Below, in pieces: positions 4,422 to 52,716 of a stretch of DNA of 64,000 nucleotides. The stretch is from Caldisericia bacterium (GTDB taxonomy: Bacteria; Caldisericota; Caldisericia; JAAYUI01), in the NCBI GenBank assembly GCA_017999835.1, contig JAGNLA010000006.1, forward strand, positions 1 to 64,000. The letters run 5' to 3'. A program made the translations under genes and the position numbers. The notes beneath the pieces were generated by a model. That model did not search any database. It worked only from the letters and a program-made list of their open reading frames with translations, and was not told the DNA's origin. Numbering within the stretch: position 1 is the stretch's first letter; each line of letters starts with the position of its first letter.

Positions 4422-7400
4422 ATGAACATGTCAGGAGGTTTTATGAAAGAACAAAAATGGTTATCAATCATCCTAACTCTGGCTTTGTTGTTACAGATTC
4501 AAGTCAATCCTGTCAAAGCCGAACCCTATACGGTGCTTAAAAGCACGGTCTGGAATGGCACTGTTGTCATGCCGGAAGGGTTTTATGTGGCGCCAGGCGC
4601 AACACTCACCATTGTTCCGGGCACGGTTGTAAAGCTTGGCGGCAATATAGGCGTGAAGGGCAAGATAAAAGCTCTTGGCAATCCAGGTGAACCGATAGTT
4701 TTCACATCTGCAAAAGATAAACCTCAAGCAGGTGACTGGGGTTATTTTGAGTTCCAGACGACTGACGGAGCCTGTGACTTCTCATTCTGCAAATTCCAGT
4801 ATGGTGGCAAAGGTGGTTTTGGCACACTCAAAATTGGCGCCCCTACGGGCATGGATGACAGAGTGCATTTTGATAATTGTACCGTTTCAGATTCAGCCTC
4901 ACAGGGAATTTGGATTGCCAAAGGGAATCCAATCATTTCAAGCTGTATCATAAAAAATTGTGCTGATCCGGCAAAAGGCGCAGGCATCTGGTTGCAGGAG
5001 GCGTCAAGTCCATCCATTTCAGGGACATCAATTGAAAACTGTACAATGGCCATAAAAACTGACCTGGACAGCACTCCGTCCATGCTTGGTAATAGAGCCA
5101 GCGGAAACAAGAAAAATGCAGTTGTTGTCGATACGGGAACAATTTCCAAAAATATTACATGGGATTCCAACATCCCATACCTGCTTGAAAAACAGATTGT
5201 CATTGCCAAGTCGGGCGTATTGACGGTCATGCCTGGCAATGTCATTAAAACTGCTTCTTCAATTGCTGTTGCGGATGGCTCGTTGCATCTGATGGGAACA
5301 GCCGAAGAACCGGTGACTGTCACCTCGGTCAATGACGACTCTGTTGGTGGTGATGTTTATAGTGATGGTCAAGGAAAAACACCACAGGCTGGCGATTGGG
5401 GACAGATAGAGTTTCAAACCCAGGCCATGCCAAGCACATTGACGTATACAAATCTGTATTATGGCGGTGGCAAGGTCGACAATAACAGTGGTTATGGCAT
5501 CATAAAGTTCGGCGCAGCTGGCGGTGTCGGAAACAACATCAAACTGTACAATTGCAATATCGCCCACTCTCAGACGACCGGTCTATGGTTCCAGGCTTCA
5601 TCGCCGTCACTTTACAACTGCTCGGTAAGCGATTGCAAAAACGAAGAGTTTGGCGCAGCTGTCTGGCTGATGAGCAAGAGCAAGCCTTTGCTTTGGGGAT
5701 GCAAACTCACAGACTGCAAGTGGGCAATCTACTCCGACGGCGACTCCTATGCCATGGGCAAGGAGATGGTTGTCGAGAAGAATCAATTCAACTGCATCTA
5801 TTACGGTGAAAGGTACGAAAGCCTTCTGCTTGACGGCGAGGTTGTGTGGGATTCTGAGTTGGTTCATTACATTCCAAAAACCATTGGTGTTCAGCCGACA
5901 GGCGTTTTAAGGCTCATGCCTGGCGTAATCCTGAAATACTCAGGCATCATCAGGGTCGACGGCAGGCTTGTAGCCATAGGCACAAAGGAAAAACCAATTT
6001 ACTTCACATCAATAAAAGACGACACCGTCGGTGGCGACACAAATGGCGATGGCACCATGGGAGACCCCAAGCCTGGCGACAACCAGGGCATTCAGTTTCT
6101 GTCATCTCGAGGAAAGTCGATTCTGAGCAACTGCATCATAAGGTACGGTGGAGAAGGTGGCAACGGAAACGTCTACTTTGGCCAGGACAAGAATGTCAAA
6201 AACGAACAAGTGATGGACAATTGTCTGATCTCTGATTCACTCAACCAAGCCATAAAGTGCAGAAAAGCCAATGTCGATATCATGAATTGCCAGATAAAAA
6301 ACTGCCAAAATAAAAACACTGGCTTTGCTGTTCAAATGGAAAACGAAAGTTTTGTCAGAATGATTGATTGTTCAATTGACAAAACCATGCACCTGTTTGA
6401 CATGACGCCTGAGTGCAGTTTCAAGACGAAAAACATAACATCAACCAACATCGGCGAGGAGCTTGTCGGTGGTTATGGCGGAATTCACATAAACAAAACT
6501 CTGGGCAAAAGGCTTCAGAAGAATACCATTTGGAACGCTGAGTACCCGTTTATCCTTGAAGATGATTTCTATGTCGACAAGGATGTCACCCTTACCATTG
6601 CAAAAGGCAACGTTGTCAAGCTTCCAAAATCATTTTATGTTTATGGCACCCTCAATTGTGCCGGTACAGAAGACGCCCCGATCTACTTCACCTCCGTTCA
6701 TGACGATACAGCAGGCGGGGACAGCAACTTGAATGGAGCTTTATCATTGCCAAGACCAGGTGATCATGGCCAGATAGAGTTCAACGGTTCTATAGGCGAG
6801 TGCTCTATAAGTCACGTTATTGTAAGGTATGGCGGAGCTGACCTCAATCAGGGAACCATCAAGATAGGTGGCAACACCGGCGTTGACAGCAAACTCAAGC
6901 TCTCAAACCTAACTGTCGAAAACAGCTCCACCCAGGGACTTTACATTCAAAACTCAAAACCCGAGATAAAAAACATAATAATCACAGGCTGCAAAAATCA
7001 GGATCAGCTCGGTGCAGCCATTTATGTCACAGGCCAGTCTGACCCTGACATCATGTACGCCAACATCACAGATTGCACCTGGGCTGCTTACAATAACATG
7101 CTCAAGGGTGGCGACCTTACAATGCAGAACGTCTGGTTTGGCGACCCATCAGGTCCAACTGATCCTGAAGGCAACCCGGACGGCAAAGGTTTGCCGATAA
7201 AGGGCAGCGTTTCATACAAACCATTTGAAAAAGAACCACTTAAGTTTGTTGGCGCTGGTGGCAAGGGCGGAGAGCTTCCGCCGTATACAAGACCGGTTCC
7301 AACGTTTGAATCGCCCGTGGAAGTTCCATTAGCCTTGGAAGTCAACCCAATGATAGTGAAAGCCAACGCTGGCTCTACGTTTGAGATTGAAGCAAAATCG

Positions 7401-8495
7401 GGTGTTGCTCCGTATAAGTTCAAATCACTTGACGATTCCATCTGCAAACTGACTGACCAAAAAGATGGTGTGGCAAAGTTCGCAATGACAGGTACTGGCG
7501 CAACAATGGTTCAGGTATCTGATTCCAGCGACCAGATGGACAACGTCTGGGTAACCAATAAAACCGTAGGTTCCCCCAAAACTTTGCCGATCCTTACTCC
7601 ACAGGCATCCGTGGTTAAGGTTGGCTGGACAACCAGTTTCAAAGTTGTAGGCAATATGTCCGAAGAACCAAAAGCAATGTTAATGCCTGGGCTTTCAGCC
7701 AATATTGTAGATTCCAACAATGGAGAAATCACTGTTTATGGCAAAAAGGCCGGAGTGGAAGCCATAAAAGTTGTTATTGGCAATGTTTCAATGGAATCAA
7801 AGATAATCATCTACGCTGACGATGGCACAACACACGAGTCGGTCTGGGATTTCAGGGCTACCCCAGGTGACGGCAAGGCCAGGCTGATGTGGAAACTGCC
7901 AAACATCCAGCAAAAAACATTCGAAGGTGTTGTGCTGATGATGAATGGGAATCCGATAACCGAGGTTGGAAACGAACAAACAAACTATACAGTCACAGGC
8001 TTGAAAAACGGTACAACCTACACCTTTGGCATAAGAGCAAGATCTGGTGGCAGCACGATCACAAAAACCTGTACACCAGGGAAACTCTCAAATTCCATAG
8101 TCCTTTGGATTGGAAAACCAGATGTCATTGTTGACGGCACCAAGGGTTTCGTCGACAAAAATAAAGCTGTTGTGCCAACCATCGTAGGTAAATCGACGAT
8201 GGTGCCGTTCAGGTTTATTGGAGAGGCTCTGGGTGCCGAAATCAGTTGGGTTGGCGACACCAAAGAAGTTGGTTTCTGGACTCCGAGAGCAGACATTAAA
8301 ATTTATATTGGCAAGAAAACGGGTACAAGCTTTGAAACACAGATAACAATAGACCCCCCTCCACAAGTAATCCTGGGGAAAACCTATATTCCTCTGAGAA
8401 CTGTTTCAGAATTGCTTGGCGCAAAAGTTGTGTATGAAGCGAAAACCAAGAAGATCACAATCACCTATGAAAGGCCATGGTCGGCCAACTGGTGA
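4422..8495 (+). CDS. Secreted right-handed beta-helix repeat protein with FN3-like and C-terminal copper-amine-oxidase-N1-like domain
   Basis: Signal peptide (LSIILTLALLLQIQVNPVKA). Four recurring modules TS(x)(K/N/H)DD(S/T)(V/A)GGD...P(Q/K/R)(A/P)GD(W/N/H)G(Y/Q)(F/I)(E/Q)F with NCxI/NCT beta-helix rungs. An FN3-like segment (TYTFGIRARSGG). The C-terminus (VLWIGKPDVIVDG...VPFRFIGEALGAEISW...IPLRTVSELLGAKVVY) resembles Cu_amine_oxidN1 stalk domains. Confidence 0.85.
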   Translation: MNMSGGFMKEQKWLSIILTLALLLQIQVNPVKAEPYTVLKSTVWNGTVVMPEGFYVAPGATLTIVPGTVVKLGGNIGVKGKIKALGNPGEPIVFTSAKDKPQAGDWGYFEFQTTDGACDFSFCKFQYGGKGGFGTLKIGAPTGMDDRVHFDNCTVSDSASQGIWIAKGNPIISSCIIKNCADPAKGAGIWLQEASSPSISGTSIENCTMAIKTDLDSTPSMLGNRASGNKKNAVVVDTGTISKNITWDSNIPYLLEKQIVIAKSGVLTVMPGNVIKTASSIAVADGSLHLMGTAEEPVTVTSVNDDSVGGDVYSDGQGKTPQAGDWGQIEFQTQAMPSTLTYTNLYYGGGKVDNNSGYGIIKFGAAGGVGNNIKLYNCNIAHSQTTGLWFQASSPSLYNCSVSDCKNEEFGAAVWLMSKSKPLLWGCKLTDCKWAIYSDGDSYAMGKEMVVEKNQFNCIYYGERYESLLLDGEVVWDSELVHYIPKTIGVQPTGVLRLMPGVILKYSGIIRVDGRLVAIGTKEKPIYFTSIKDDTVGGDTNGDGTMGDPKPGDNQGIQFLSSRGKSILSNCIIRYGGEGGNGNVYFGQDKNVKNEQVMDNCLISDSLNQAIKCRKANVDIMNCQIKNCQNKNTGFAVQMENESFVRMIDCSIDKTMHLFDMTPECSFKTKNITSTNIGEELVGGYGGIHINKTLGKRLQKNTIWNAEYPFILEDDFYVDKDVTLTIAKGNVVKLPKSFYVYGTLNCAGTEDAPIYFTSVHDDTAGGDSNLNGALSLPRPGDHGQIEFNGSIGECSISHVIVRYGGADLNQGTIKIGGNTGVDSKLKLSNLTVENSSTQGLYIQNSKPEIKNIIITGCKNQDQLGAAIYVTGQSDPDIMYANITDCTWAAYNNMLKGGDLTMQNVWFGDPSGPTDPEGNPDGKGLPIKGSVSYKPFEKEPLKFVGAGGKGGELPPYTRPVPTFESPVEVPLALEVNPMIVKANAGSTFEIEAKSGVAPYKFKSLDDSICKLTDQKDGVAKFAMTGTGATMVQVSDSSDQMDNVWVTNKTVGSPKTLPILTPQASVVKVGWTTSFKVVGNMSEEPKAMLMPGLSANIVDSNNGEITVYGKKAGVEAIKVVIGNVSMESKIIIYADDGTTHESVWDFRATPGDGKARLMWKLPNIQQKTFEGVVLMMNGNPITEVGNEQTNYTVTGLKNGTTYTFGIRARSGGSTITKTCTPGKLSNSIVLWIGKPDVIVDGTKGFVDKNKAVVPTIVGKSTMVPFRFIGEALGAEISWVGDTKEVGFWTPRADIKIYIGKKTGTSFETQITIDPPPQVILGKTYIPLRTVSELLGAKVVYEAKTKKITITYERPWSANW

Positions 8496-9259: not shown

Positions 9260-9931
9260 TTGAGCAATAACTCAATGAGTAAGGAGTTAATGAGTATGGA
9301 CTCAAGCCAAAGAAGCGATCGCAAGGAAAAAACGAGAAAAGCAATCATGGACTCAGCCTTCCAACTTTTCTCGGATAATGGCATTATGAGCACAACAACC
9401 CAGGAAATAGCCAGAAATGCAAACATTTCCCATGGGCTTATCTTCTCATACTTTCCCACGCGCGACATCCTCATCCTGACGATGATTGAAGACTTTGGAC
9501 TCAGGCTGGTTTCGCGCATGAATGAGCTTTCCCAGCCTTTGGGGTCGCTTGAGCAAACGCTGGAGTCTGACCTGACCGTGATAGCCGAAAACGAGGCATT
9601 TTATGCCAGGCTCATGCACGAGGGGCCGACAATTCCACAAACGGCAAGATCAAGCTACATCGTCAACTTGAACTCGATTTCTGCAAAAATCCTGGCTGCC
9701 ATTAAAAGAGAGTTCAAATCGGAGGGTATGAGCGACCAGAGCGCGCAGATGTGGTTGCGATGCTGGAATGGTCTGGTTCTTTACTACCTGATGTATCGCG
9801 ACCTTATCGACCCGGGGAAATCCGTAATAAATGAAAAAAAGGATGAGATAATAAGTTTTTTTGTCAAGTCTATAAAGGGGAGCATTTATGAAACGCTGTC
9901 AATCATGTGGAAGGCTCATCGAACTGCTTGA
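9260..9931 (+). CDS. TetR/AcrR family transcriptional regulator
   Basis: N-terminal HTH (KTRKAIMDSAFQLFSDNGIMSTTTQEIARNANISHGLIFSYFPTRD) typical of TetR. Its 3' end overlaps the next gene by 44 bp. Confidence 0.8.
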   Translation: MSNNSMSKELMSMDSSQRSDRKEKTRKAIMDSAFQLFSDNGIMSTTTQEIARNANISHGLIFSYFPTRDILILTMIEDFGLRLVSRMNELSQPLGSLEQTLESDLTVIAENEAFYARLMHEGPTIPQTARSSYIVNLNSISAKILAAIKREFKSEGMSDQSAQMWLRCWNGLVLYYLMYRDLIDPGKSVINEKKDEIISFFVKSIKGSIYETLSIMWKAHRTA

Positions 9932-10147
9932 AGACTTTGCCGGACTCGACCAATCCAGCATTTATTGCCCATCTTGCGCTGATGATCGCGGAAAGCTTAG
10001 GTCTTTTGAAGAGGTTTTGGAGAATCTCACCCAAAGGATAGCAAAAACCGATGGTTTTGATGAGTCAGCCTCAAGAAACGCAGCTTTGCAGATACTAGGG
10101 AGACAACCGGCCTGGGAGCCGAAGTTCAAACGGGAGGAAAAAGTGAA
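9888..10147 (+). repeat. 260-bp perfect direct repeat, copy 1
   Basis: By eye, identical to 12033-12292 at every base. It encodes aa 1-87 of paralog A. Confidence 0.9.
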
Positions 10148-12032: not shown

Positions 12033-12292
12033 ATGAAACGCTGTCAATCATGTGGAAGGCTCATCGAACTGCTTGAAGACTTTGCCGGACTCGACCAATC
12101 CAGCATTTATTGCCCATCTTGCGCTGATGATCGCGGAAAGCTTAGGTCTTTTGAAGAGGTTTTGGAGAATCTCACCCAAAGGATAGCAAAAACCGATGGT
12201 TTTGATGAGTCAGCCTCAAGAAACGCAGCTTTGCAGATACTAGGGAGACAACCGGCCTGGGAGCCGAAGTTCAAACGGGAGGAAAAAGTGAA
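12033..12292 (+). repeat. 260-bp perfect direct repeat, copy 2
   Basis: Identical to 9888-10147. The sequences diverge immediately 5' of the ATG and after the codon for residue 87. Confidence 0.9.
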
Positions 12293-24534: not shown

Positions 24535-27478
<2,944 letters not shown>

Positions 27479-27553
27479 TTTATATAAAACCTACATAGTT
27501 TTCAGAGCACCGCTTCGTGTAAAATTGAAAAGGCGAAAGCTTTTATTCAAAAA

Positions 27554-27674
<121 letters not shown>

Positions 27675-30910: not shown

Positions 30911-32428
30911 TTGGAAAGTTTTGCGGCAGCGGCAGTTGTAGTTGCCTTGGGAATTCTGCCGTTTGTTGCGCCAAGGAATAAAAATACTGTCAGAGATGTT
31001 ACTATGTTTGTTGCGGCCAGACGGAAACCGTTGCTGACCAACAGTGACGCAGAAACAGCGAAAAGGTTTGAAATATCCTTTGATTCGACAAGCAGTCTTG
31101 CCTATGTATCAAACCCACTTGATGGCACGGTGATGAGGTTTGACGAAAATGGTCAATATTTCTACAACACAAAACTATGCAAGACTTTTATTTTGAACGA
31201 TTGTCCACCTGTAACATGGAGTGACCTAAATGGATATGTAAAAAAGAATAACTTTATAGATATCGATTACATAACCGATTCAATAAATCACAACGTTTTT
31301 GTGCCAAACGAAGGCTACATGTTTGCCAACCCGAAAGAAGCCACGCTTTTTGAACCGGTCCAGACGGCTGTCTTTGAGGATGCCAAGAACTGGCGGGAGT
31401 ATGTGATTGATAGAGCCGGCAATAAGCTCCTGAGTTTTGCCCATTTTGAAAGCAAAGAAAAATGTGATAGATATTCAAAAGTTTTGTGGTCTGTCCCTAA
31501 AAATAAAATGATGGGTAATGCACCAATTGGAGAAGACAACTACAGTTTCTCAGGTCCATCAGGTGTGTGCGTAGATGGAGTCGGCAATGTTTATGTGGCT
31601 GACACCGGTAACGACAGGATAATGAAGTACAGCTCCAAGGGCGAGTTCCAGAGTGTTTTCCAGCCAGGATTTGACAAACCCAGGGCAGTGGCCGTAAATG
31701 CCTATGGGAGCAGCATTTTTGTATGCGATTCAAACAATAAGAGGGTTGTGGCAATTGATACAAAGACAAAAAAGACAATCCTGACTGTCACCAATGCAAA
31801 ATTTGCCAATCCTGATGCAATCTGCCTTGATGCCCAAGGGGCAATCTGGGTAGGCGATTCGGTCTCAAACACGCTTTTCAAATTTTCAGGAACAAAGACC
31901 AAAAAACCCGGAGTTCCGGTTTTTGCTGTCAACGATGTCCTGACAAGCAAGAAATTCCCCAGGACAGTTCTTGAAATGGAGCTTATGAGGTACTCCTGCA
32001 AAAGAAACGAACAAACTGTAAAAATCAGACCCTATGCGCAGTATAAAAACAAGATTCCGTGTGTACCTATAGAATTTGTCTTTGACAACCTAATTAAAGA
32101 TGAGTCCAGGGGCGGCCTCGAAGGTTTCTCTTGTACCTTCGACGTAAACACAAAATGCCTGACAGTAAATGTTCCAGAAATCCAAGTCGGTGAAGGCAAG
32201 ACACTTGAAAAAAGAACAGTGTCCCTGTGCGTCGATTGTGACATGGCCACTGTCAATGGCAAAGACGTTTTGCTTTCAGGCAAGGTGACGATAATTGGTG
32301 GATCTGTTTTTGCCCCGGCCGTTGATCTGACGAAGCTCTTTGGGGTTGAGGTGTCTTTCAAGGAACCAAAAACTGAGCCGGTAACGCGTCGTCTTTCCAT
32401 GACGCTGGTTTTTCCTCCGATAAAATAG
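30911..32428 (+). CDS. NHL-repeat protein with C-terminal Cu-amine-oxidase-N1-like domain (paralog 1)
   Basis: TTG start after a GAGGAGG RBS. NHL repeats (GVCVDGVGNVYVADTGNDRIMKY, IFVCDSNNKRVVAID, IWVGDSVSNTLFKF). The C-terminus (IRPYAQYKNKIPCVPIEFVFDNL...GGSVFAPAVDLTKLFGVEV) is stalk-like. Confidence 0.7.
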   Translation: MESFAAAAVVVALGILPFVAPRNKNTVRDVTMFVAARRKPLLTNSDAETAKRFEISFDSTSSLAYVSNPLDGTVMRFDENGQYFYNTKLCKTFILNDCPPVTWSDLNGYVKKNNFIDIDYITDSINHNVFVPNEGYMFANPKEATLFEPVQTAVFEDAKNWREYVIDRAGNKLLSFAHFESKEKCDRYSKVLWSVPKNKMMGNAPIGEDNYSFSGPSGVCVDGVGNVYVADTGNDRIMKYSSKGEFQSVFQPGFDKPRAVAVNAYGSSIFVCDSNNKRVVAIDTKTKKTILTVTNAKFANPDAICLDAQGAIWVGDSVSNTLFKFSGTKTKKPGVPVFAVNDVLTSKKFPRTVLEMELMRYSCKRNEQTVKIRPYAQYKNKIPCVPIEFVFDNLIKDESRGGLEGFSCTFDVNTKCLTVNVPEIQVGEGKTLEKRTVSLCVDCDMATVNGKDVLLSGKVTIIGGSVFAPAVDLTKLFGVEVSFKEPKTEPVTRRLSMTLVFPPIK

Positions 32429-32678
32429 CAATCCAACAATCATAGCCACGACGTAGCGTTGTAGTTCCTCGATTTTGATTGCCATGTTGTTTTTTTGATT
32501 TCATAAAAATTAAGGAAGAAAAATCAAAACATTGTGTAACTTTATAATGATGATGGATTAGTGGCGTCTGCATAACCAACGGTTTTGGTTCAGATTTTAA
32601 CAAAACACCTTGCTGGTTTCGTTGATTTTAACAGATGTTAAATTATCCTGAAACGTAACCCACCAAGGAGGTGAGTCA

Positions 32679-34253
32679 ATGAAGAGATTTTTGAAAGTGA
32701 CACTGCTAGTAGCCCTTGCAACCGTGCTTGGACTTGGAACAATTGCCATCCCGAACAACAAAACAAACGCCGAAGACGTGGAGATTTTTGGTGTGGCAGC
32801 CAACAGCTTTGGATATTACATCCTCGTGGCAAATCCAAAGACAAACACAGTCCAGAAATATGACCTTAACGGCAATTTCCTCAACGACTTCATCAAATGG
32901 TTCTCCCCACAGGAACTTGATGGCCCAGACGATCCAGTTGGCGCATGCCCAACATGGAAGTATGAAGGCCTCATCGCCGTCTCAATCTGCCGTATCACTG
33001 ACATGACAGCCGTCACTGACTATAAGCTGAGAAAAGTCTTCACCATCAACCCAAACGTCACACCTCACCACCCAATTGGCGACCCGTCAAAGAATGAACT
33101 CGAACTCCCATGGCACGCCTCGGAAACAGAAGTCTCAGACGACATCGGAAACTACGTCATCGACATGGTTGGCAACAAATATGTCAGATATGACCCGCCA
33201 GCAATTAATTTCGACAAATCCGCTGTTGAGTGCGAGGTTTATGCAAAGCCAAGATATTCAGTTCCAGCAGGATACATCAACAAACCAGCCCCGGCAGGCA
33301 CAGAGCAGGGACAGTTCAGCTCACCGGAAGGCATCGGCGTTGACAGACGTGGATTCATTCTTGTAGCAGACACTGGCAACAACCGCATCCAGAAGTTCAG
33401 AAGAGACGGCTCATTCTTTGCCGAATTCAAGGCAGACTTCAACAAGCCAGTTTACGTTATTCCTGACTTCAACGATGACTCGCCAAACAGATACTACATT
33501 GCAGACCAGGGCAACCACAGAATTGCAGTCTTTGACGAGAGAAACTTAAAGCTTGTCACTGAGATAAAGCCGACCAACGCAGATGGAACGCCACTTTTCG
33601 ATAAGATCGTCGCCGTCGCCATCGACATGGATTATAACATCTGGGTGGCAGATGTTGGAACAATGTGCCTTTACAAGCTCTCATCAATCGACTCGAAAGA
33701 GCCGGGCAAACTTATGCTCAAGATATGCAATGTTCTTGACACACCACCAATCTACACACACGTCTCAAGAATCGAACTCAAGAAGTACTCAGCAAGAGTT
33801 GATGAGTCAACCGTCAAAATCAGACCGTACGCCCAGATAGTCGGTGGCAGAACGATGGTTCCGCTCCGCTGGATTGCTGACAATGCTCTCTCCAACAAGA
33901 CAAAGAAGTTTGGTCCTATTTATAATACAACCGTTGAATGGGATGCAAAGACAAGATGCGCAACATTCACAATGCCTGAAATCAAGTTCAGTGACAAGCT
34001 GACATACCCAAAGAAGGTCGTAAAGGTTTGCATAGGAAACCAGACAGCCGAAGTCAATGGTCAGCCGGTCAAGATTGATGCCCCGCCGGTAATCATTGAC
34101 GGTTCAACGTTCGTTCCGCTTCGTTTCATTGCCGAGGCATTCGGTGCAGAAGTTAGGTACAAAGAGCCAAAGACTCAGCCGGTCACAAAGAACGGAGAAT
34201 GCATGATCATCATGCCGTCTACCGAAAAAGTGAAGGCAGCTTACGGAAGATAA
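32679..34253 (+). CDS. NHL-repeat protein with C-terminal Cu-amine-oxidase-N1-like domain (paralog 2)
   Basis: Signal peptide, then NHL repeats (GIGVDRRGFILVADTGNNRIQKF, YYIADQGNHRIAVFD, IWVADVGTMCLYKL). The C-terminus (IRPYAQIVGGRTMVPLRWIADNAL...DGSTFVPLRFIAEAFGAEV) is stalk-like. Confidence 0.8.
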   Translation: MKRFLKVTLLVALATVLGLGTIAIPNNKTNAEDVEIFGVAANSFGYYILVANPKTNTVQKYDLNGNFLNDFIKWFSPQELDGPDDPVGACPTWKYEGLIAVSICRITDMTAVTDYKLRKVFTINPNVTPHHPIGDPSKNELELPWHASETEVSDDIGNYVIDMVGNKYVRYDPPAINFDKSAVECEVYAKPRYSVPAGYINKPAPAGTEQGQFSSPEGIGVDRRGFILVADTGNNRIQKFRRDGSFFAEFKADFNKPVYVIPDFNDDSPNRYYIADQGNHRIAVFDERNLKLVTEIKPTNADGTPLFDKIVAVAIDMDYNIWVADVGTMCLYKLSSIDSKEPGKLMLKICNVLDTPPIYTHVSRIELKKYSARVDESTVKIRPYAQIVGGRTMVPLRWIADNALSNKTKKFGPIYNTTVEWDAKTRCATFTMPEIKFSDKLTYPKKVVKVCIGNQTAEVNGQPVKIDAPPVIIDGSTFVPLRFIAEAFGAEVRYKEPKTQPVTKNGECMIIMPSTEKVKAAYGR

Positions 34254-34268
34254 AAAGTTAGGAGTTTC

Positions 34269-42843: not shown

Positions 42844-44010
42844 GTGAAAAAGAATAGAATCAGAAACATTATTGTTGTCGCCATTGTGATTGTGCTTGTG
42901 GCAGCCGTGACATATGTGGTTTGGGAATCCATAAAGAATTCGAAGAACCAGCCAAAAACAGAGAACCAGATTCTCGTCCCTACGCTTAACGGCCCTGATG
43001 GAGTAGTCGCAAGAGTAGGCAAAGTCGACATTTTACTTAAGGATTATGCCGACATGGTTGCCAAAGAGCGCATCCGTGTAATGTCAGAACAGAACAAAGA
43101 TATTAATGAGCCAAATAATTCTGAACTGGCCAAGGTTGTCAGGGATTCAATACTGAACAATCTTATAGAGATGGCAGTGTACAAAAACTATGCAATCGAA
43201 AATGGACTTGAACCCACTGACGCACAGTTGACCAAGGCAGTCAACGAGGATGTGGATTCTCAGGCAAGCGAGATTGGCGGTTACGACAAGCTCGAAAAAA
43301 AACTCAAAGAGAATGGATTCAAGTCAGTCGAGGATTACAAGAACAAGCTTCGCAGTGAGAATGAATTCCTTGGTTCCATCATTACGGAAGCAGTAAAAAA
43401 AGATATCCAAAAAAATATAAAGATTTCTGAACAAGAAGCCAAGGATTTTTATGAATCCAAGCTTATTGGCATTTCTAGAATAGTTTTCTATTACAACTCC
43501 AAAGAAAATGACGAAACAACAACAAAAGAAGGCTATGAGACCATGAAAAAGTTGAGAGAGCTCATAGGAACCAAAGGTACTTTTGCAGACATAGCCATGG
43601 AATTTTCCGAAGAATATGAAACAGCGCAATATGGTGGCAAAGTCAGCGATCTTTTCATCAAAGGTTCATTGCCTGAGAGCGTAGAAAAGGTCGTGTGGAA
43701 CCTCAAAGTTGGCCAGGTTAGCGAACCGATATTGACAAGTGATTCATTTTGGATTGTAAAGTTGGACATGGAAACCTACGTTTGGCAGTATTACTTTGCC
43801 GACACTACAACAAAAAAGAAAGTTCCGTTTGAGCAGATAAAAAACAAAGTTGGTGACCAGTTGGTGACCATTAAGGCTCTTGAAGAGGAAAACAAATGGT
43901 ACAGCCAATACTCTTCAAAACTTAAAACAGAAATATTCATAGACTATAAAGAAGTGACAGCGCCGGAAAAAACAGAAAATACCGAAAATAAAACGGACAA
44001 AACAAAGTGA
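42844..44010 (+). CDS. Peptidyl-prolyl cis-trans isomerase, SurA/PrsA-like (parvulin)
   Basis: N-terminal signal anchor, SurA-like chaperone region, and a parvulin core (GGKVSDLFIKGSLPESVEKVVWNLKVGQVSEPILTSDSFWIVKL). Confidence 0.75.
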   Translation: MKKNRIRNIIVVAIVIVLVAAVTYVVWESIKNSKNQPKTENQILVPTLNGPDGVVARVGKVDILLKDYADMVAKERIRVMSEQNKDINEPNNSELAKVVRDSILNNLIEMAVYKNYAIENGLEPTDAQLTKAVNEDVDSQASEIGGYDKLEKKLKENGFKSVEDYKNKLRSENEFLGSIITEAVKKDIQKNIKISEQEAKDFYESKLIGISRIVFYYNSKENDETTTKEGYETMKKLRELIGTKGTFADIAMEFSEEYETAQYGGKVSDLFIKGSLPESVEKVVWNLKVGQVSEPILTSDSFWIVKLDMETYVWQYYFADTTTKKKVPFEQIKNKVGDQLVTIKALEEENKWYSQYSSKLKTEIFIDYKEVTAPEKTENTENKTDKTK

Positions 44011-44107: not shown

Positions 44108-47100
44108 ATGTCAGGGGATTGGCATTTCTTCCCTGGAGGTGAAATGAGAAGAACTCTGGCCTTTCTGGCATTGGCGCTTGCTTTTTCAGGCATAAACCCA
44201 ACCTGGGCAGCATCGGGTGCAGACAACTCTTTTTTCAAGGTTCTTGCTCCTTCCCAGTCAGATGGTGACTGCACTCTCAGGCTGTCTTTCCAGATAGGGA
44301 AAACCTATTACTGGAAGAACGGTCAGATAAAGGGTGTGTCTCCGGACACGACTCCACCGATGGGTACGGCTCCGGAAATCAAGAAGGGCAAAACCTTCCT
44401 GATAATCCGCTACATCACCTCCGAGGTTGGCGCCACGCTACAATATTGGAAAAAAGGGACAGGCGAGGACAAAACAAAACAGGATCAGGTCAGAATTGTC
44501 ACAAAGCAGGGCAAGATTATTGACTTGTGGATTGGCAACCCGATGGCAAAAATAAACGGTGTTTCGGTTGCCATTGACCCAACCGATTCGACAGGGCAGA
44601 TTGCGCCATACATCAAAGGCAAAGGCTACACCATGCTTCCTCTGAGGTTTGTCGGTGACAACCTCGGTGCCAAAATAAACTGGATATCATCATCAACCAC
44701 AGCAGAACTCATCTTTACCGATGAAGAGTGTATAAAAAAATGCTGTGAGTTTTCTGTAGAACCGACAGAACAGATTTCTCTGTGTCCAGGTGAAGAAAAG
44801 TCGGTTAATCTGGCAGTTAAGAATATTTGCCAGGGCAAATCCATCACGCTATCTTTTACGCCAGGCTCAGGCATTTCAGCAATTGACAACAAGCAACTGA
44901 CCATTGAGGCAAACGGTACGGCAATCCTCAAAGCGACCGTGGCGATGCCAACGGTAATTTCTGAAAAAGCGGTTTTCACGCTCAAGGTTTCTTCCGATTG
45001 CGGAGTTGACAAAGAAGTCCAAATCGAGGCGCTTTTCAGGGAACAGCAGTGCCTCAACGAGTGCCAGTGGATCTGTGGTTGCATTGGCAAACTCACCCAG
45101 TCGCAGGATGTTGTGATCGTAGAGTTTTTTGAAGGATGCGCCAAAAAGAACCAAAGAAACTACATCGATACCGGCTCAACAAAAGACCTAATGCTTGGTC
45201 TAACTTTTGGCCAGTATGTTGACAAATATGGCTCAAACCCTTGCGCGCAGATTTGTGTCGATGAAGATGGTGACATCCAGGCTTGGAGGGCTTTCCCGGA
45301 CAGAACACCCTGCTGTCAGGATCACGTGTTTGCAAAACTCGACCTTGTGGACTGCAACTTGAAAATTGCGACAGGAGTCGATCCTGAAGGCACCAGATGG
45401 GTGTTTGACCTGTCGGAGTTTGAAGGCTGTGACGCTTTTGTCGCTGGCAAATGCTACGATTTTGCTGGAACTACCGTCAGGCCCAGGGGCATATCTTTTT
45501 CAGGTTCAGGTTTGCTCGAAGTCACGTCAGTTCAGGAAAAGGATTGTCAGGGAGCGGTTTTAACCGGCAAAGTGTCAATAATCCAGTGCAAGTCGAATCC
45601 GCCAATGGCCATGCTTGACACTGGAGATGGTAGTTCAGTCGAAGTTGAGTTGTTGTGCCAGAGCATGAGGAATGCCGATGGCAGGATTGTGGACTGTCAG
45701 GAAGTCAGGGATGGCGATTGTTTGACGTTTGTCGGATACCATTCTGGAGAACGTTTTGTCGCGTGCAAAGGCGACATACTTCCGTGCATGGCAACCTTCG
45801 AGACTTTCGATTGTCGACTCGACAGCGTGGTTTTACAAAACAATGCTTTGTTGTCAGTGAAAGCGTTTATTGGATGCAAAGGTGAGCAAACCACATTCAC
45901 ATCACCGAGAATGCTTGGCGATGACCTGTCTGAATACAGGAACCTGCTCTCATACTCGGTAACCGGCAACTACGCGAGGCTGACTGTAAACGACTCGACA
46001 ATCGTCCGCTGGAAACCATTGCTGACAGGATGCGGAACCTGCGTTGAGGAACAGCTATTTGAAATCATTGAAGCAAAAATAACTGAGAAATCGGATCAAA
46101 TGATTGTCATCGCTCGAAATCTGGACGGCAGGCTTGTAACCTTTGAAGCAGCCAAGGTTGACGAAGCAATGTTGACCTATAAAGGCACGGCCAAACTTTC
46201 CATCGATGGAAACGGCAAAATTTCAGGCTGGGAAAAACTTTCCGGTGGTTGCTGTTTTGCTGAACAGGGCAGGCTTGTACCATCGAAGAAATCGCTTGCT
46301 GTAAGCTCCATTTCTACTGAAATCGTTACCGGCGACCAGCTGAAGGTTTCAAATGAGTTGGGTGACATCGAGCTTCAACAACTCAAACTAAAACTTTCAA
46401 CACAGGTCAACCCATGGGACAGTTTCCAGCAATATGGAGCAAACTGGATTGGCTCCGACCTTTCAAGTTCGGGTGACACGATCGAATTCCTGCAGTCTTT
46501 CTGCGTACCAGAGTGTACGGCTGCCAGGCTTAAAATACTGAATACTTCAACCACGCAAATTTTCCTTGATGAGGGCAAGACTCCGATGGCAACAGCCGAA
46601 GGAATTGCCCACCTTTCAGATATCTTTTTTACTGTGCCTGCTGGCAGCCACAAGCTTAGATTTGTCCAGAAAAAATCTGCATTTTCTGGATTGATGTTTG
46701 TTCTGACAGGTCAACCTTCCAAAGAGTGCAAAACTTCTAGTTACCAAATCTCCTTTGGTACAGACAGAACGCTTGAAGGCGCCTGTGCTGGGCAAAAGAA
46801 AAAATATGCCTTGCTCCTTTCAAACACTGGCGAAGAAACAAAAACTTTCTCTATAACCCCGGTCAGCGTTGGTCTGGTCATCAACCCCTCAACGGTCAAA
46901 ATCCCAGCTGGCGAACAGGAACTGGTGCAGGTTACGGTTTTGATGCCGGAAAACCCTGAAAATTCAGCTTCTGTAACATTCAGTTTCTATCTTCAGGTTG
47001 ACGGCACGCAACAATCGATGATCGATTTTTCAATTCCGTATGGACAGTGTGATGATTGTTCCCTAAAAACCGACAACACGTTGATAATTCTGCCTGAAAT

Positions 47101-48679
47101 GTGCCCGGATGATTCATCCAAAATAGAGATAAACCTGAAAAACTCATGCTCCAGGGAACTGACCTTAAAATCTGTGTCTGAGGACAAAATGCTCGAGTTG
47201 CCTGCAACAGAGATGATCCTTAAGGCTGATGATGCTCTTTCTTTCAATGTTATTTTCAAAATGCCGGCAAGAGGCGATTCAAAATTCCTCTTTGCCAGCT
47301 TTAGCTTGAAATCTGAAGATAAAACTGTCGTTTATTATGATGTTGTGGCGATGTTCAAAAACGATGAACAATGCTGCTGTGATTTTGGTGTTGAGCTTGT
47401 TACGAGGTTTGTTGCCGAACAAACCATGGAACCTGGCGAAACATTCACCTATGACTATCTGGTAAAAAACAAATGTTCGGGCAGAAAGCTGAGTTTCACA
47501 ATTTCAAAAGGCGACAACATTGTTTCAGTCTCCCCTGAAAGCTTTATTGTCGATGCTGGCAAATCCGTGCCTATGCAGGTGAAGGCGCTTATGCCAGAAA
47601 AAAAAGGCGAGTATGCCCCTTTCAGTTTTGCTGTTGCATGCGATTGCGGAAAAAAAGCTAATATCAGCTTCACAGTAAAATACAAGCAGCAGGCTGTCTG
47701 CTGTGATTATGAGGTTGGATTCACCCAGGACATTCCTCAACCGTTGATGCTTGAACCAGATACGCAGTATGTTTTTGGTATGGGCGTTAAAAACAAGTGC
47801 AAAGAAGTCACCATTTCAGCAACTGTTATCGGTGGAGATTATGTTCAGCAGGTTGAACCAGGGAAACTCATTGTTGGCCCAGGACAAATTGCCGGATTCA
47901 GACTTTTCGTCAAAATGCCATCATGCAAACAGGGCGAGATCGTAACCTTCCGGTTCAGGGTCATTGTTGATGGATGCGACGAGAAAACCTATGAAATACC
48001 TGCTGCCTGTGGAACACAGATGGCAAACTGTTGTGATTATGACATTTCCGATGTTGACGGTCAGTTGAAAAACCTGAAAATTTGCCCCGGAGAATCCAAA
48101 ACCATCAAGCTGACCCTGGTCAACAAATGTCAGGATCGTTTGCTAACCGGCTCAATAAAGAACGGTGATGGAATCAGCGTAGATCCGCCTAATTTTACCA
48201 TCCAGGCCGGGAAGTCAATTTATATCTATATCACAGTTACCATGCCACAGAATGCCACAATTGGCAGTGCCTACACATTCGCATTTCTGGTGATGATTCC
48301 GGGGTGCACTAACAGAAAATATTCGTTTGAAGTGATATGTACAAGTTGTGGTAACGAACCTGAAGGGTGCTGTGATTTTACCTTGAATCTGATTTCCAAT
48401 CCTCCTTCATGTGTCACACCTGGGAAATCGTTTGAAATGACTTTTGAACTGTGCAATTTGTGTTCAAAAAGCATGCAATTTTCGGTTTCCGGGACAGGCG
48501 TCAATACGGGTGTGTTGGCCGTAGGGGCAAACACGTGCACCAGATTTAACGTTTTGTTTTATGTTCCACAGAATGTTTCGAATGTCTATACAATCAAGAT
48601 GAGCGTGTTGATGACGTCTCCAACGGAATGCGTAGGGAAAGGCAAACAGATTGAACTGCCGTTGAAGGTTTGCAATTGA
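44108..48679 (+). CDS. Giant secreted Cys-rich repeat protein (1523 aa) with N-terminal Cu-amine-oxidase-N1-like domain
   Basis: Signal peptide. N-terminal stalk-like domain (YYWKNGQIKG...FLIIRYITSEVGATL...YTMLPLRFVGDNLGAKINW). Then at least 9 modules of ~110 aa that start with CCEF/CCDF/CCDY and carry conserved internal Cys (..LCPGE..NLAVKNICQG..). Confidence 0.85.
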   Translation: MSGDWHFFPGGEMRRTLAFLALALAFSGINPTWAASGADNSFFKVLAPSQSDGDCTLRLSFQIGKTYYWKNGQIKGVSPDTTPPMGTAPEIKKGKTFLIIRYITSEVGATLQYWKKGTGEDKTKQDQVRIVTKQGKIIDLWIGNPMAKINGVSVAIDPTDSTGQIAPYIKGKGYTMLPLRFVGDNLGAKINWISSSTTAELIFTDEECIKKCCEFSVEPTEQISLCPGEEKSVNLAVKNICQGKSITLSFTPGSGISAIDNKQLTIEANGTAILKATVAMPTVISEKAVFTLKVSSDCGVDKEVQIEALFREQQCLNECQWICGCIGKLTQSQDVVIVEFFEGCAKKNQRNYIDTGSTKDLMLGLTFGQYVDKYGSNPCAQICVDEDGDIQAWRAFPDRTPCCQDHVFAKLDLVDCNLKIATGVDPEGTRWVFDLSEFEGCDAFVAGKCYDFAGTTVRPRGISFSGSGLLEVTSVQEKDCQGAVLTGKVSIIQCKSNPPMAMLDTGDGSSVEVELLCQSMRNADGRIVDCQEVRDGDCLTFVGYHSGERFVACKGDILPCMATFETFDCRLDSVVLQNNALLSVKAFIGCKGEQTTFTSPRMLGDDLSEYRNLLSYSVTGNYARLTVNDSTIVRWKPLLTGCGTCVEEQLFEIIEAKITEKSDQMIVIARNLDGRLVTFEAAKVDEAMLTYKGTAKLSIDGNGKISGWEKLSGGCCFAEQGRLVPSKKSLAVSSISTEIVTGDQLKVSNELGDIELQQLKLKLSTQVNPWDSFQQYGANWIGSDLSSSGDTIEFLQSFCVPECTAARLKILNTSTTQIFLDEGKTPMATAEGIAHLSDIFFTVPAGSHKLRFVQKKSAFSGLMFVLTGQPSKECKTSSYQISFGTDRTLEGACAGQKKKYALLLSNTGEETKTFSITPVSVGLVINPSTVKIPAGEQELVQVTVLMPENPENSASVTFSFYLQVDGTQQSMIDFSIPYGQCDDCSLKTDNTLIILPEMCPDDSSKIEINLKNSCSRELTLKSVSEDKMLELPATEMILKADDALSFNVIFKMPARGDSKFLFASFSLKSEDKTVVYYDVVAMFKNDEQCCCDFGVELVTRFVAEQTMEPGETFTYDYLVKNKCSGRKLSFTISKGDNIVSVSPESFIVDAGKSVPMQVKALMPEKKGEYAPFSFAVACDCGKKANISFTVKYKQQAVCCDYEVGFTQDIPQPLMLEPDTQYVFGMGVKNKCKEVTISATVIGGDYVQQVEPGKLIVGPGQIAGFRLFVKMPSCKQGEIVTFRFRVIVDGCDEKTYEIPAACGTQMANCCDYDISDVDGQLKNLKICPGESKTIKLTLVNKCQDRLLTGSIKNGDGISVDPPNFTIQAGKSIYIYITVTMPQNATIGSAYTFAFLVMIPGCTNRKYSFEVICTSCGNEPEGCCDFTLNLISNPPSCVTPGKSFEMTFELCNLCSKSMQFSVSGTGVNTGVLAVGANTCTRFNVLFYVPQNVSNVYTIKMSVLMTSPTECVGKGKQIELPLKVCN

Positions 48680-48803
48680 AAATATTTTCGCCAATTTTGC
48701 GCCAATGTTTGTAAATTGTAAACAATAATAATAGGAAATTGCAAATTAATATGAATAAATATGATTTATTAACTGTATAAAATAATGAATAAATTGAAAA
48801 ATA

Positions 48804-48834: not shown

Positions 48835-49029
48835 GGATTATCATGTTTTTGAGAAAAGTTGAATAGGGAGCTGAATAATTCAGGAATATCAATGGTTATC
48901 AAATCATAAATATTATTTTGTGTAGTACTGTTGTTTTTGGCTGAAGAATAATTCTATTATCTTTAATTATCGGTTCCAAACATCGCTTCAATGCAATAAA
49001 ATCTTATCGAATTTCTTTGGAGGTGATGC

Positions 49030-52000
49030 ATGAGGCGATTATTTATCAAAATTGCGCTGGTGGCCATGATTGTTGGATTGTTTGCCCCAATCATGCCGCA
49101 AGTTATGGCTGCTCCGTCAACAATCACGTTGACAGCAACCCCTGGCTGCGGATATGTGTTGCTCAAATGGACAGACACCGATAGGGCTTATCAATTCGAA
49201 CCACAACTTGTGCTTGATGACGGTTCGACATATCCAATTGAGGATTTTCCACTTGTCGGGAAATATGAATACAAACACGAAGGTTTGACTGAAGGCAAGG
49301 AATATTGCTATGTAGTCGTCAGTCGAGACAAGGATGCCAACAAGATTGCCGAGAGCAACAAAGCATGCGCAACACCGGTGTGCAAGGAAGATTGCACCTG
49401 GAAATGCGGATGCTTCAAAGAATTGGTTGCAACCGCTGCAAACGTTGTAAAATTCTCTGAAGGCTGCAATGACAGCGTTACACCATCGTTGCTTAGTTTT
49501 CCACCGACCCTTGTTGACCAGCTTCATAGTTGGACTATCGAGCAGTACCTCAAGATTTGCAAGGAAAAGGGCGTCAACCCATGCGTTCGGGTGTGCGTTG
49601 GCCCAAACAACAACATTGTTGCCTGGAAAGCTGACATCGAGGGCAACGATTGCTGCAAGCCGCAGACTCCAACGCCTGTCATTGAATGCTTCTGCATAAA
49701 ACTCACTGAAATCGATTGTAACCAGGTCTTTGCTCGTGGTGTGGCAAGTGACGGCGCCCCATGGTGCATAGTTGGGTTAACCACCGCCCAGTGCAAGGAT
49801 TTGAAAGTCGGACTGTGCTACAAGGTTTGTGGCGAAGAAATCATTCCTGGTCCAACTGAAAAGTGGTCATGCAGAAGGATAAAAATCGGCACGATAACAC
49901 AGGCGCAATGCGATTGCAAATGCCTGTGCGTGAAAGTGTCAAAAATCCAGTGTCAGACTGCAGCAACCAATAACCCATTCCCGATTTTCTATGGCACTGA
50001 TGAAAACGGCAACGCCGTGACAGCTGTCATCCAGGACGCCACAATCACTGATCTTTCCGGCAATGTTGTAAAGTGTGAAGACATCAAACCAGAAACCTGC
50101 TGGAACCTTTGTGGGTTCTGGAGAGAAGCAGCTACTGGCGCTGCGCCTGTGTTTGTGGTGTTGCAGGCAGAGCAGGTTGATTGCGCCAAGTGCGTCAAGC
50201 AGTGCTGCGAATTCAGGATCAAACCAAAAGTAAACCTGCCTGAATGCGTAAACCCTGGGCAACAGTTCTCTTTCTATTTTGATCTGGAAAGCTATTGTGA
50301 CTCAAGAATAACTTTCGACATGGTAATAGTGAACAACACGCCTGGCCTGACTGCTACCGTGTCTCCGACATCTGTCACTACTCCTGCTTATGTACCGCCA
50401 AATCCTGGAGTGGCCGGAGTGTATGTGACCGGAACAGTGCCAACCGCATGTGAAAAGTTGGAGTTGATTTTGCAGGCATGGCCAAAAGACAGCAAGTGCA
50501 ATATGGTTGAGTACAAGATTTCCATACCATGCTGCAACACCTGCTGCAAGTATGATGTTAAACTAAAAGGCACGTTGCCTGAATGTGTCAAGCCAGGCGA
50601 AAAATATGTTCTTACATATGAAATATACAACTATTGCGCAAATCCGATAAACTTCAGCATGGCTTACACCATCCAATCAGGTGGTGTGTCACCGATTGTT
50701 GACCCGATGATGCTGACAGTCCCAGCAGGAACGCTTGCCCCAGGCGTTGCAACCTTTACAGCCACAGTCACGGCTCCAACCAATTGCACTGGAGAGATAG
50801 CCTTTACGCTCATTGTTAACCCCAACAACATGCCAAACTGTCCAAAGAAGGAGATACCTGTAAAGCTCAAATGCTGTGGCACATGTTGCCAGTTTGAGAT
50901 AAAAAAACTTACAGAAATTCCAACCTGTCTGGATGCTGGAAAAAAAGTAACAGTAAGATACAGGCTATATAACACCTGCAATCCTTGCACGCCAATACCT
51001 TATATCATCGTGCCAAGCACAAACGTTACGGTTAATTCGGCAACCAGTGGCACCATCCCATGCGGCAACACAAACTATGTTGATATCAGCGTGACTTTCA
51101 CCATGCCAAAGCCCTGCAAGGAAACAACATTCATGTTTGTCATCTCTGCCTGTGGAAAACGTACTCCTGTTCAGGTCAAGATTCCTTGCTGCAATCCTTG
51201 CTGCAAGCTTGAAGTCAAACGCATGACCGACTTGCCAAAGTGTCTTGATGCTGGCCAGAAGACAACTATCCGTTACAGAATCTACAACCTCTGCGATCCT
51301 TGCAAACCAATTCCAATCAAGATTTATCCGGGAACTGGAGTAACCATAAATACCCCTTCAGGTGGGGCAGGAACGGTTCCATGCAAACCGAATTACCTTG
51401 ACGTAAGCGTTACTTTCACAATGCCAAAGCCTTGTAAGGACACCGTCTTCCAGTTCAAGGTTGTTGCATGTGACAAAACCACTCTTGTTGAAGCCAAAAT
51501 CCCTTGCTGCACAGTGACGTGCTGCGACTACACGGTCAAGATGACGTCGAATTTGCCAGAGTGTCTCAAACTTGGCCAAAAGTACGATCTGAAATTCGAA
51601 ATCTGTAATAAATGTTCGACAGCGACAACTCTTGCCTTGAGCAGATGCCCTGGAACAACAGGGCTGACTGTTTCCCCGGCAACGCTCAACCTTGGCCCGT
51701 CTGGATCGAAATCAGCATGCATGACTGTGACAGTTACCATCTGGGCTGACGAAAACACATGCAAACAAAACAATGGTGTTATTGAGTTCTGTCTGATGAC
51801 CAAGGTTGTAACTCCAAAAGATTGTGGTGATGGCAGCATAAAATATACAAAGTTCAGAGCAATGTGCTGCGACTATGAAAGGAAGAACTGCTGCCAGTTT
51901 GAAATCACGCCACTCAACTCGCCACCGTCAGAGCTTGCGCCAGGTGAGACATTCATGGTCAAATATCAGGTGTCAAACAAGGGAGACAGGGCCACATGTG

Positions 52001-52716
52001 CTCCGCTGAACATGTTCATAAAAAATATTCAACCAGTAGATGCCATCGTTATTTCACCGATGACTTTCACTATTGCAGCTGGCGGGATGGTCAACCTTGA
52101 TGCGAAGATAATCATGCCTGATTGTACGTCTGATACAGTTACGTTTAGTTTCGAGATATGGTTTGAAGGGTGCGAGAAACCTGCCATTGTCAAATTTGAT
52201 GTTGCCTGTACACAAGGATGCAAGCTCAACCTGATGTACAAGATAAACGTCAAGCAGTATTGGAAAAACGGTGAGTTTGTCGAGGACATGCCAGTTACGC
52301 CTGTAATCAGGTCTGACATGAATGACAGATCGTTCCTGGTTATCAGATATGTTACAAAACATGTGGGTGCCACACTTAGTTATGATTCAGCTCAAAAAAT
52401 GGTCACCATTGTCACCAAGTTTGGTAAAAAGATTGTGCTCTGGATTGGCAACAGCAAGGCTCAGGTCGATGGAAAGGAAGTGGATATCGACCCGACAGAC
52501 ACCAAGAAGACCGTCAAACCATTTATCAGTGGTCAGGGTTACACCATGCTTCCGCTGAGATTTGTTTCGACCCATCTTGGGGCGCTTCAGGTCAAGTGGC
52601 ATGGCGATACCCAGATAGCAGAGCTGATTTTTGACTGTAACACAGCAACTGACACGGCCGTACCAGCAACAAGACCAGGAAATGCTGTTAACAGATGGGA
52701 TTGTGTAGCCCAATAA
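49030..52716 (+). CDS. Giant secreted Cys-rich repeat protein (1228 aa) with C-terminal Cu-amine-oxidase-N1-like domain
   Basis: Signal peptide. FN3-like N-terminal region. A C-x-W-x-C-G-C cysteine knot region paralogous to the preceding gene. At least 7 modules start with CCEF / CCxxCC(K/Q/D)(Y/F/L) ... P(E/K/T)C(L/V).(A/P)G.K. A C-terminal stalk domain is about 45% identical to the N-terminus of the preceding protein. Confidence 0.85.
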   Translation: MRRLFIKIALVAMIVGLFAPIMPQVMAAPSTITLTATPGCGYVLLKWTDTDRAYQFEPQLVLDDGSTYPIEDFPLVGKYEYKHEGLTEGKEYCYVVVSRDKDANKIAESNKACATPVCKEDCTWKCGCFKELVATAANVVKFSEGCNDSVTPSLLSFPPTLVDQLHSWTIEQYLKICKEKGVNPCVRVCVGPNNNIVAWKADIEGNDCCKPQTPTPVIECFCIKLTEIDCNQVFARGVASDGAPWCIVGLTTAQCKDLKVGLCYKVCGEEIIPGPTEKWSCRRIKIGTITQAQCDCKCLCVKVSKIQCQTAATNNPFPIFYGTDENGNAVTAVIQDATITDLSGNVVKCEDIKPETCWNLCGFWREAATGAAPVFVVLQAEQVDCAKCVKQCCEFRIKPKVNLPECVNPGQQFSFYFDLESYCDSRITFDMVIVNNTPGLTATVSPTSVTTPAYVPPNPGVAGVYVTGTVPTACEKLELILQAWPKDSKCNMVEYKISIPCCNTCCKYDVKLKGTLPECVKPGEKYVLTYEIYNYCANPINFSMAYTIQSGGVSPIVDPMMLTVPAGTLAPGVATFTATVTAPTNCTGEIAFTLIVNPNNMPNCPKKEIPVKLKCCGTCCQFEIKKLTEIPTCLDAGKKVTVRYRLYNTCNPCTPIPYIIVPSTNVTVNSATSGTIPCGNTNYVDISVTFTMPKPCKETTFMFVISACGKRTPVQVKIPCCNPCCKLEVKRMTDLPKCLDAGQKTTIRYRIYNLCDPCKPIPIKIYPGTGVTINTPSGGAGTVPCKPNYLDVSVTFTMPKPCKDTVFQFKVVACDKTTLVEAKIPCCTVTCCDYTVKMTSNLPECLKLGQKYDLKFEICNKCSTATTLALSRCPGTTGLTVSPATLNLGPSGSKSACMTVTVTIWADENTCKQNNGVIEFCLMTKVVTPKDCGDGSIKYTKFRAMCCDYERKNCCQFEITPLNSPPSELAPGETFMVKYQVSNKGDRATCAPLNMFIKNIQPVDAIVISPMTFTIAAGGMVNLDAKIIMPDCTSDTVTFSFEIWFEGCEKPAIVKFDVACTQGCKLNLMYKINVKQYWKNGEFVEDMPVTPVIRSDMNDRSFLVIRYVTKHVGATLSYDSAQKMVTIVTKFGKKIVLWIGNSKAQVDGKEVDIDPTDTKKTVKPFISGQGYTMLPLRFVSTHLGALQVKWHGDTQIAELIFDCNTATDTAVPATRPGNAVNRWDCVAQ

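Follow-up and report, generated by a model that had tools for sequence, protein, structure and literature searches.

The Cu_amine_oxidN1 domain (Pfam PF07833), also called the 'stalk' or cell-surface-binding module (CSBM), takes its second name from OlpC, whose copper-amine-oxidase-like domain was reported to bind cell-wall polymers (2009 work of Pinheiro et al., according to the passage citing it in PMC4582956). Cellulosome surveys place the domain among wall-interacting modules (PMC11557425), and PF07833 proteins were recovered in the surfaceome of D. reducens, where the domain often sits on wall hydrolases (PMC4137172). Here we analyse a stretch of 64,000 nucleotides from a Caldisericia bacterium (GenBank assembly GCA_017999835.1, contig JAGNLA010000006.1, positions 1 to 64,000 of the forward strand; hereafter the window), in which five open reading frames (ORFs) of the + strand, for short p1 to p5, carry this domain. 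We propose, with a probability of roughly 0.55, that the domain acts in these proteins as a non-covalent envelope-binding foot that retains exported payloads on the cell surface.

A Pfam hmmscan of the five ORFs matched PF07833 above its gathering score of 24.2 bits in every case. The carriers and their matches are given below.

4422..8495, + strand: p1, 1357 amino acids (aa), with signal peptide, four right-handed beta-helix blocks, fn3 and a C-terminal Cu_amine_oxidN1; PF07833 match 105.2 bits, E 2.2e-30
30911..32428, + strand: p2, 505-aa NHL-repeat protein (NHL 7e-13) with a degenerate C-terminal Cu_amine_oxidN1; match 26.7 bits, E 5.7e-06, marginal at 2.5 bits over the gathering score
32679..34253, + strand: p3, secreted 524-aa NHL-repeat protein (NHL 4.1e-14) with a C-terminal Cu_amine_oxidN1; match 96.2 bits, E 1.4e-27
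44108..48679, + strand: p4, giant secreted protein (ORF of 1523 aa) with Ig-like families according to Pfam; match 57.0 bits, E 2.2e-15
49030..52716, + strand: p5, giant secreted protein of 1228 aa with a C-terminal Cu_amine_oxidN1; match 65.3 bits, E 5.5e-18

We built our own profile from the five copies; in the stop-to-stop segments of all six frames of the window it found no sixth copy at E<10. The envelopes that it returned, with the state of each copy, are the following.

8100..8471, + strand: p1 copy, aa 1227-1350; canonical, with PxR...LGA in both halves
31970..32404, + strand: p2 copy, aa 354-498; degenerate, the conserved Arg residues replaced by E and V
33768..34208, + strand: p3 copy, aa 364-510; insertion of ~20 aa past the first helix, both Arg retained
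44276..44722, + strand: p4 copy, aa 57-205; directly behind the signal peptide, both Arg retained
52225..52641, + strand: p5 copy, aa 1066-1204; both Arg retained

The five segments are genuine copies of Cu_amine_oxidN1. An earlier note on this DNA, made from the letters alone, had recognised the same motif block in these five places, at coordinates that agree with our envelopes within a few tens of bases, and had left its proposal to depend on the Pfam model, which matches all five segments. It had also described the block as reused on five different secreted proteins of beta-helix, NHL and Cys-rich type. The domain is terminal in all of them, behind signal-like N-termini of which that of p2 is weak, and the Pfam repeats and Cys content agree with the carrier types.

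The domain is a compact, internally duplicated unit of about 125-150 residues, and the copies in the window measure 124-149 aa. Two homologous halves with the pattern ...IG...(N/D)G......G.T.(V)P.R(F)....LGA.V.W... are present in 5/5 copies. The PxR motif, counted in 150 high-scoring representatives of the family, is near-invariant in both halves, with the proline in 147/150 and 150/150 and the arginine in 140/150 and 144/150. Four of the copies in the window are canonical and one, that of p2, is degenerate; because both family-conserved arginines are gone from it, the p2 copy probably no longer does whatever these residues do. The predicted structure of the p1 domain (predicted local distance difference test, pLDDT, 94) is a closed intramolecular pseudo-dimer within a single chain, and comparison of this model with solved structures gave domain D1 of the E. 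coli amine oxidase as the sole significant match. Since a phmmer search with the p1 domain against the PDB sequences returned nothing at E<=0.01, the link to the E. coli enzyme is one of fold comparison only.

The copper amine oxidase catalytic and N2/N3 families have no Pfam match in any of p1 to p5. None of these proteins receives a family name from NCBIfam, whose primary-amine oxidase model touches p3 at model positions 62-111 only, with 17 bits against a cutoff of 1278. Because no carrier has an amine-oxidase catalytic domain, the domain has no enzymatic role here.

The payloads to which the domain is joined differ widely. In p1, Pfam detects Beta_helix in four stretches (3.8e-29) and fn3 (7.5e-06). 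The order in p4 is signal peptide, N-terminal Cu_amine_oxidN1, Cys-rich OB-like modules and Ig-like repeats, and in p5 a conserved N-terminal segment follows the signal peptide, before three Cys-rich OB-like modules, Ig-like CCxF repeats and Cu_amine_oxidN1, with a Cys content of 4.4% in p4 and 7.2% in p5. Export was judged by a hydropathy heuristic and by inspection of the translations, and the N-termini of all five carriers are hydrophobic and signal-like. Typical n-h-c regions with AxA-like sites are found in p1 (N-terminus MKEQKWLSIILTLALLLQIQVNPVKA), p3, p4 (read from Met13) and p5, and the N-terminus of p2 is hydrophobic without a basic n-region. The true start of p4 is likely M13 at nt 44144, which gives 1511 aa, and a gene of 1511 aa is called for p4 on the independent metagenome contig L013. 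No other anchor, whether a C-terminal transmembrane segment, a sortase motif or a lipobox cysteine, was seen in the translations and hydropathy scans of p1 to p5, and SLH (PF00395) had no Pfam match in these proteins nor in the 38 other ORFs of the window that were scanned.

To place these architectures within the family, we searched 1.84 billion representative proteins exhaustively with a profile, which gave 64,462 representative clusters with PF07833 at E<=1e-3, 45,296 of them at E<=1e-10. Architectures were sampled in the best 150 members, a sample biased toward multi-copy proteins. A copy lies <=15 residues from the C-terminus in 105 of these and starts within 70 residues of the N-terminus in 56, and 108 of the 137 complete sequences have a signal-like N-terminus. 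Partners are diverse, with 63 different families in 70 proteins of the sample, among them Listeria-Bacteroides repeats, Amidase_3, YkuD, M14 peptidase, LRR and cohesin; NHL repeats occur as a partner in three cases. Attachment to unrelated exported payloads is therefore a general habit of the family, and the modular surface proteome that the earlier note had described for this stretch holds as reuse of one domain on different carriers, but not as something peculiar to the window.

We place the organism, on protein identity and gene order, among the Caldisericales of the phylum Caldisericota and not among the Firmicutes (Bacillota), as had been assumed before. This assignment is made because PurD is 75% identical to that of two 'uncultured Caldisericales bacterium' metagenome-assembled genomes (MAGs), against 57% for a Caldisericia MAG and 44% for the best match in Clostridia, and because 13 genes at ~30.3-44 kb are syntenic with the first Caldisericales MAG (L004), with protein identities of 39-84% (11/13 at >=50%). 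The window is chromosomal, with rRNA and with genes for PurD, PurE, glutamate dehydrogenase, electron transfer flavoprotein, Fpg and a P-type ATPase. The exact proteins p1, p3 and p5 were found solely on short contigs from a few metagenome runs, the identical p3 on three such contigs.

Genes that combine NHL repeats with the domain stand in a tandem array, with two members in the window (30911-35508), three in L004 (1568-8356) and four in the genome L005 (1-8902); behind the array there are always a membrane-anchored rhodanese and a small protein with multiple transmembrane segments. All members of the array in these genomes carry the PF07833 domain. The upstream members, of p2 type, are without both domain arginines in all three genomes, and the final member retains both; p3 is this conserved final member, with orthologues in L004 and L005 that are 83-84% identical. 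An orthologue of p4 with the N-terminal domain is present in L004, its domain 76.5% identical to that of p4 and its flanking segments 33-40%. A more distant Caldisericia MAG (L006) encodes, at 539-4261 of the - strand, a protein of 1240 aa in which a signal peptide and a conserved N-terminal segment precede the domain, with about a dozen Cys-rich modules behind it. The N-terminal segment of p5 is kept in this protein; it is fn3-like by eye only and has no Pfam match.

A search with the whole of p5 returned only seven relatives, and PF07833 is present in all of them except a protein of 891 aa (P0170), which has no alignment over the C-terminal domain region of p5. In the four more divergent orthologues among the other six (P0164-P0169), the domain is 81-94% identical to that of p5; the Ig repeats reach 58-79%, the Cys modules 66-77% and the short tail beyond the domain 24-67%. 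In the two closest orthologues all parts are 82-99% identical and the contrast is small. Relative to the payload of p5, the domain is by these identities under strong purifying selection.

Comparison among the copies of the window separates three subtypes, namely p1, p2/p3 and p4/p5. The nearest pair is p4 and p5, with 49.6% identity over 135 aligned residues of the domain (45% by BLASTP over 153), and these two proteins are also paralogous along their length outside the domain, at 22-30%. The domains of p2 and p3 share 38% over 138-140 aa and the proteins are tandem paralogues end to end, with 30% over 488 aa. Between subtypes the identity is 32-47%, with only 19-93 residues aligning, and the best matches of p1 are proteins from other sources and not its neighbours in the window. 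We considered and rejected the idea that one domain had recently been duplicated into five genes, given three old subtypes that differ to this degree. The view that close paralogs bracket the two giant genes stands for the topology, N-terminal in p4 and C-terminal in p5, but overstates the closeness of two copies that are about 45-50% identical.

We favour the envelope-binding foot because the domain is terminal, because the carriers have export signals and showed no other anchors, because of the precedent of OlpC, and because a conserved foot is paired with a variable payload in the giant proteins. Once p1 to p5 have passed the Sec system and lost the signal peptide, the domain would bind a conserved component of the envelope, either peptidoglycan or a wall-linked secondary polymer. 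In this way otherwise soluble payloads, that is, the beta-helix protein, the NHL propellers and the giant Cys-rich OB/Ig arrays, would be held on a cell that has no outer membrane. The analysis establishes the identity of the domain, its completeness, fold and terminal position, the export signals and the conservation in relatives; attachment to the envelope and the ligand are inferred. Caldiserica are treated in papers on envelope evolution as without lipopolysaccharide genes and monoderm; a literature search on the envelope of Caldisericum exile found nothing specific.

Several points weigh against the foot. The OlpC precedent is a secondary citation, and the extrapolation from clostridia to the envelope chemistry of Caldisericales is uncertain. 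No ligand-bound structure of the domain was found by the PDB sequence and fold comparisons. The domain of p3 is not better conserved than its payload, being 80% identical in the orthologues compared with 85% for the propeller. No labelling of cells was obtained with a Paenibacillus fusion probe that carries the domain (bioRxiv 2026.09.23.753664). In the P. lautus CuZnSOD (PaSOD), the PF07833-type N-terminal domain is a homodimerisation and stabilising module, as seen by size-exclusion chromatography with multi-angle light scattering and by the crystal structure (PMC10432803), and a PF07833 domain is predicted to make homodimers of multi-flavinylated proteins (PMC11334425). The literature evidence on the role of the domain is thin and mixed. 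The statement that in Firmicutes it mediates cell-wall or S-layer association is backed by a precedent for wall anchoring in OlpC, but anchoring is not its sole demonstrated role, as PaSOD dimerisation makes clear.

The last three of these reports, including the failure of the Paenibacillus probe to bind cells, can also be read as evidence that the domain serves mainly for protein-protein interaction or oligomerisation and pairs carriers with themselves or one another (p4 through its N-terminal copy and p5 through its C-terminal copy, for instance) in place of binding the wall; any surface retention would then stem from assembly into a layer. It also fits this view that the p4 and p5 copies form, with the L006 protein, their own subfamily, which is better conserved than the payload. 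We regard it as possible, though doubtful. PaSOD has only part of the fold and pairs chains to obtain a two-helix, two-sheet unit, whereas both halves are present in 5/5 copies here, and the copy of p1 closes in one chain in a model of high confidence, its fold being complete without dimerising; for these two reasons dimerisation is weakened as an explanation for the window. Pairing would moreover leave unexplained the frequent siting of the domain on wall hydrolases and on exported proteins that have no other anchor.

The domain might instead be a passive spacer, a stalk in the literal sense, or a folding and stability module without a specific ligand, carried along in lineage-specific expansions of secreted proteins. 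Its sole significant structural match, the homologous D1 of the E. coli amine oxidase, has to our knowledge no assigned ligand. The p2-type copies persist in three genomes despite the loss of the arginines, and PaSOD's N-terminal domain raises the melting temperature by ~12 degrees C (PMC10432803). Such a role is nevertheless unlikely, since two Arg and two Pro are near-invariant across the sampled family and the domain is 81-94% identical where the payload is 58-79%, which argues for a specific conserved interaction, and since a strict terminal preference is typical of anchoring and targeting modules. Finally, the only support for a chance or compositional likeness to a short motif, without homology, is the p2 match just 2.5 bits over the gathering score. 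This reading is refuted by E-values of 2e-15 to 2e-30 for the other four copies, by the alignment of p2 with p3 from end to end (38% in the domain, 30% over the 488 aa), by the six-frame scan, which gave no spurious match elsewhere in the window, and by the high-confidence structure model of p1.

The Cys-rich modules of the giant proteins follow the pattern C.C..I...G.D..G..W....C..VCG...CC and lie at aa 118-395 of p5 (49381-50214), at aa ~294-544 of p4 and in the L006 protein (539-4261(-)), with about three modules in each giant protein of the window and about twelve in that of L006. The model of the Cys-rich N-proximal region of p5 contains three small beta-barrels (pLDDT 78), and the structural matches of the barrels are all tandem OB-fold proteins, among them BRCA2 OB, Teb1, HIN and SSB (E 9e-06 to 1e-3). 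In these models the resemblance to OB is one of fold level only. Cys-rich OB arrays outside the cell of an anaerobe are puzzling.

A bolder proposal is that PF07833, and not SLH, would be the main envelope-attachment device of Caldisericota, and that the p4/p5 family, giants of 4-7% cysteine with tandem OB-like barrels and Ig-like CCxF repeats, would form a lineage-specific outer layer or sheath. We consider this attractive but unlikely. In such a layer the conserved module would be either the foot or the head-to-tail contact between p4 and p5; it stands N-terminal in p4 and C-terminal in p5, and in the L006 protein it comes behind the conserved N-terminal segment. If true, a phylum that has hardly been studied would have a bacterial surface layer of a new type. 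One gene next to p4 may be related to the making of these proteins.

42844..44010, + strand: SurA_N/PPIC-type peptidyl-prolyl isomerase directly upstream of p4, membrane-anchored through an N-terminal transmembrane segment (Rotamase 2.3e-13, SurA_N_3 1.3e-10)

The neighbourhood of the prolyl isomerase and p4 is also found in L004 and L013, and the enzyme may serve the giant proteins as a dedicated foldase. The spacer between p4 and p5 is AT-rich and 350 bp long, and p5 has its own GGAGG ribosome-binding site. A scan for promoters and terminators at 42.7-53 kb gave counts near the shuffled expectation.

Other features of the window were recorded in the course of the analysis. The 23S and 5S rRNA genes lie at 24552-27673 with no 16S gene upstream, where a dual-specificity phosphatase ORF ends at 24007, and no tRNA genes were found in the window; the arrangement looks like an unlinked rRNA operon. 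Two adjacent ORFs at 9888-12020 and 12033-13715 encode tandem paralogues of 710 and 560 aa without any Pfam or NCBIfam match, which have identical first 45 residues (MKRCQSCGRLIELLEDFAGLDQSSIYCPSCADDRGKLRSFEEVLE, zinc-ribbon-like) and a transmembrane segment near residue 91. A type II restriction-modification pair occupies 27749-29656 in a stretch of low GC content (0.37). A frameshift at a poly-T run near 28042 divides its C5 cytosine methylase into 27749-28054 and 28114-29016, and an NgoBV-type endonuclease follows behind the methylase at 29003-29656. The gene of an ammonium transporter at 56991-58216 on the - strand is also interrupted, by a frameshift after an N-terminal piece of 76 aa (57986-58216), with the remainder at 56991-57983. 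Because the independent metagenome contig L013 shows the same split, it is probably real and not an error of assembly.

A literature search found no paper connecting Caldisericota with the amine oxidase domain. The architectures are partly known elsewhere, as in the case of NHL plus PF07833, and p1 to p5 extend a known and very large family. The new points are minor: the phylum, the p2-type degenerate copies kept across three genomes and the rare giant Cys-rich carriers. Otherwise this is routine domain annotation, which leaves knowledge of the family unchanged, and its biochemical role is thinly documented. For Caldisericota, a phylum in which essentially one species has been cultured and surface proteins have not been described, the five proteins do provide a concrete and testable way into the cell surface. 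The four canonical domains and the natural degenerate variant of p2 make a comparison set for binding. Discussion of PF07833 usually concerns Clostridia and Paenibacillus, and the results show that it is also expanded and conserved in a further lineage of Terrabacteria.

Among the known systems, the CSBM of OlpC (C. thermocellum) and of ScaG (A. cellulolyticus and C. clariflavum) shares PF07833 with the copies of the window and is likewise a terminal module of a secreted protein, joined to an unrelated payload without SLH, sortase signal or transmembrane anchor. The two groups differ in payload, cohesins in OlpC and ScaG as opposed to beta-helix, NHL and Cys-rich OB/Ig arrays in p1 to p5, and in host, since OlpC and ScaG belong to Clostridia with characterised S-layer and secondary wall polymers, whereas p1 to p5 come from Caldisericales. 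The D1 domain of the E. coli amine oxidase shares the fold of the p1 model at a sequence identity of about 15-16%. It sits on the catalytic amine oxidase, a periplasmic enzyme, in contrast to p1 to p5, which have no oxidase domains, and it is shorter than the copies of the window (124-149 aa), which have extra strands. PaSOD likewise has a module assigned to PF07833, at the N-terminus of a secreted enzyme; it reaches the full unit by homodimerising, unlike the copies described here, which have both halves in one chain, and its structure matches the p1 model weakly (Foldseek E 0.6). The SLH domain, which in Terrabacteria works with the CsaB-pyruvylated wall polymer, is unrelated to PF07833 in fold and family, and we know of no partner modification enzyme for PF07833. 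The likeness to SLH would be one of functional analogy only, that of a terminal, reusable and non-covalent wall anchor.

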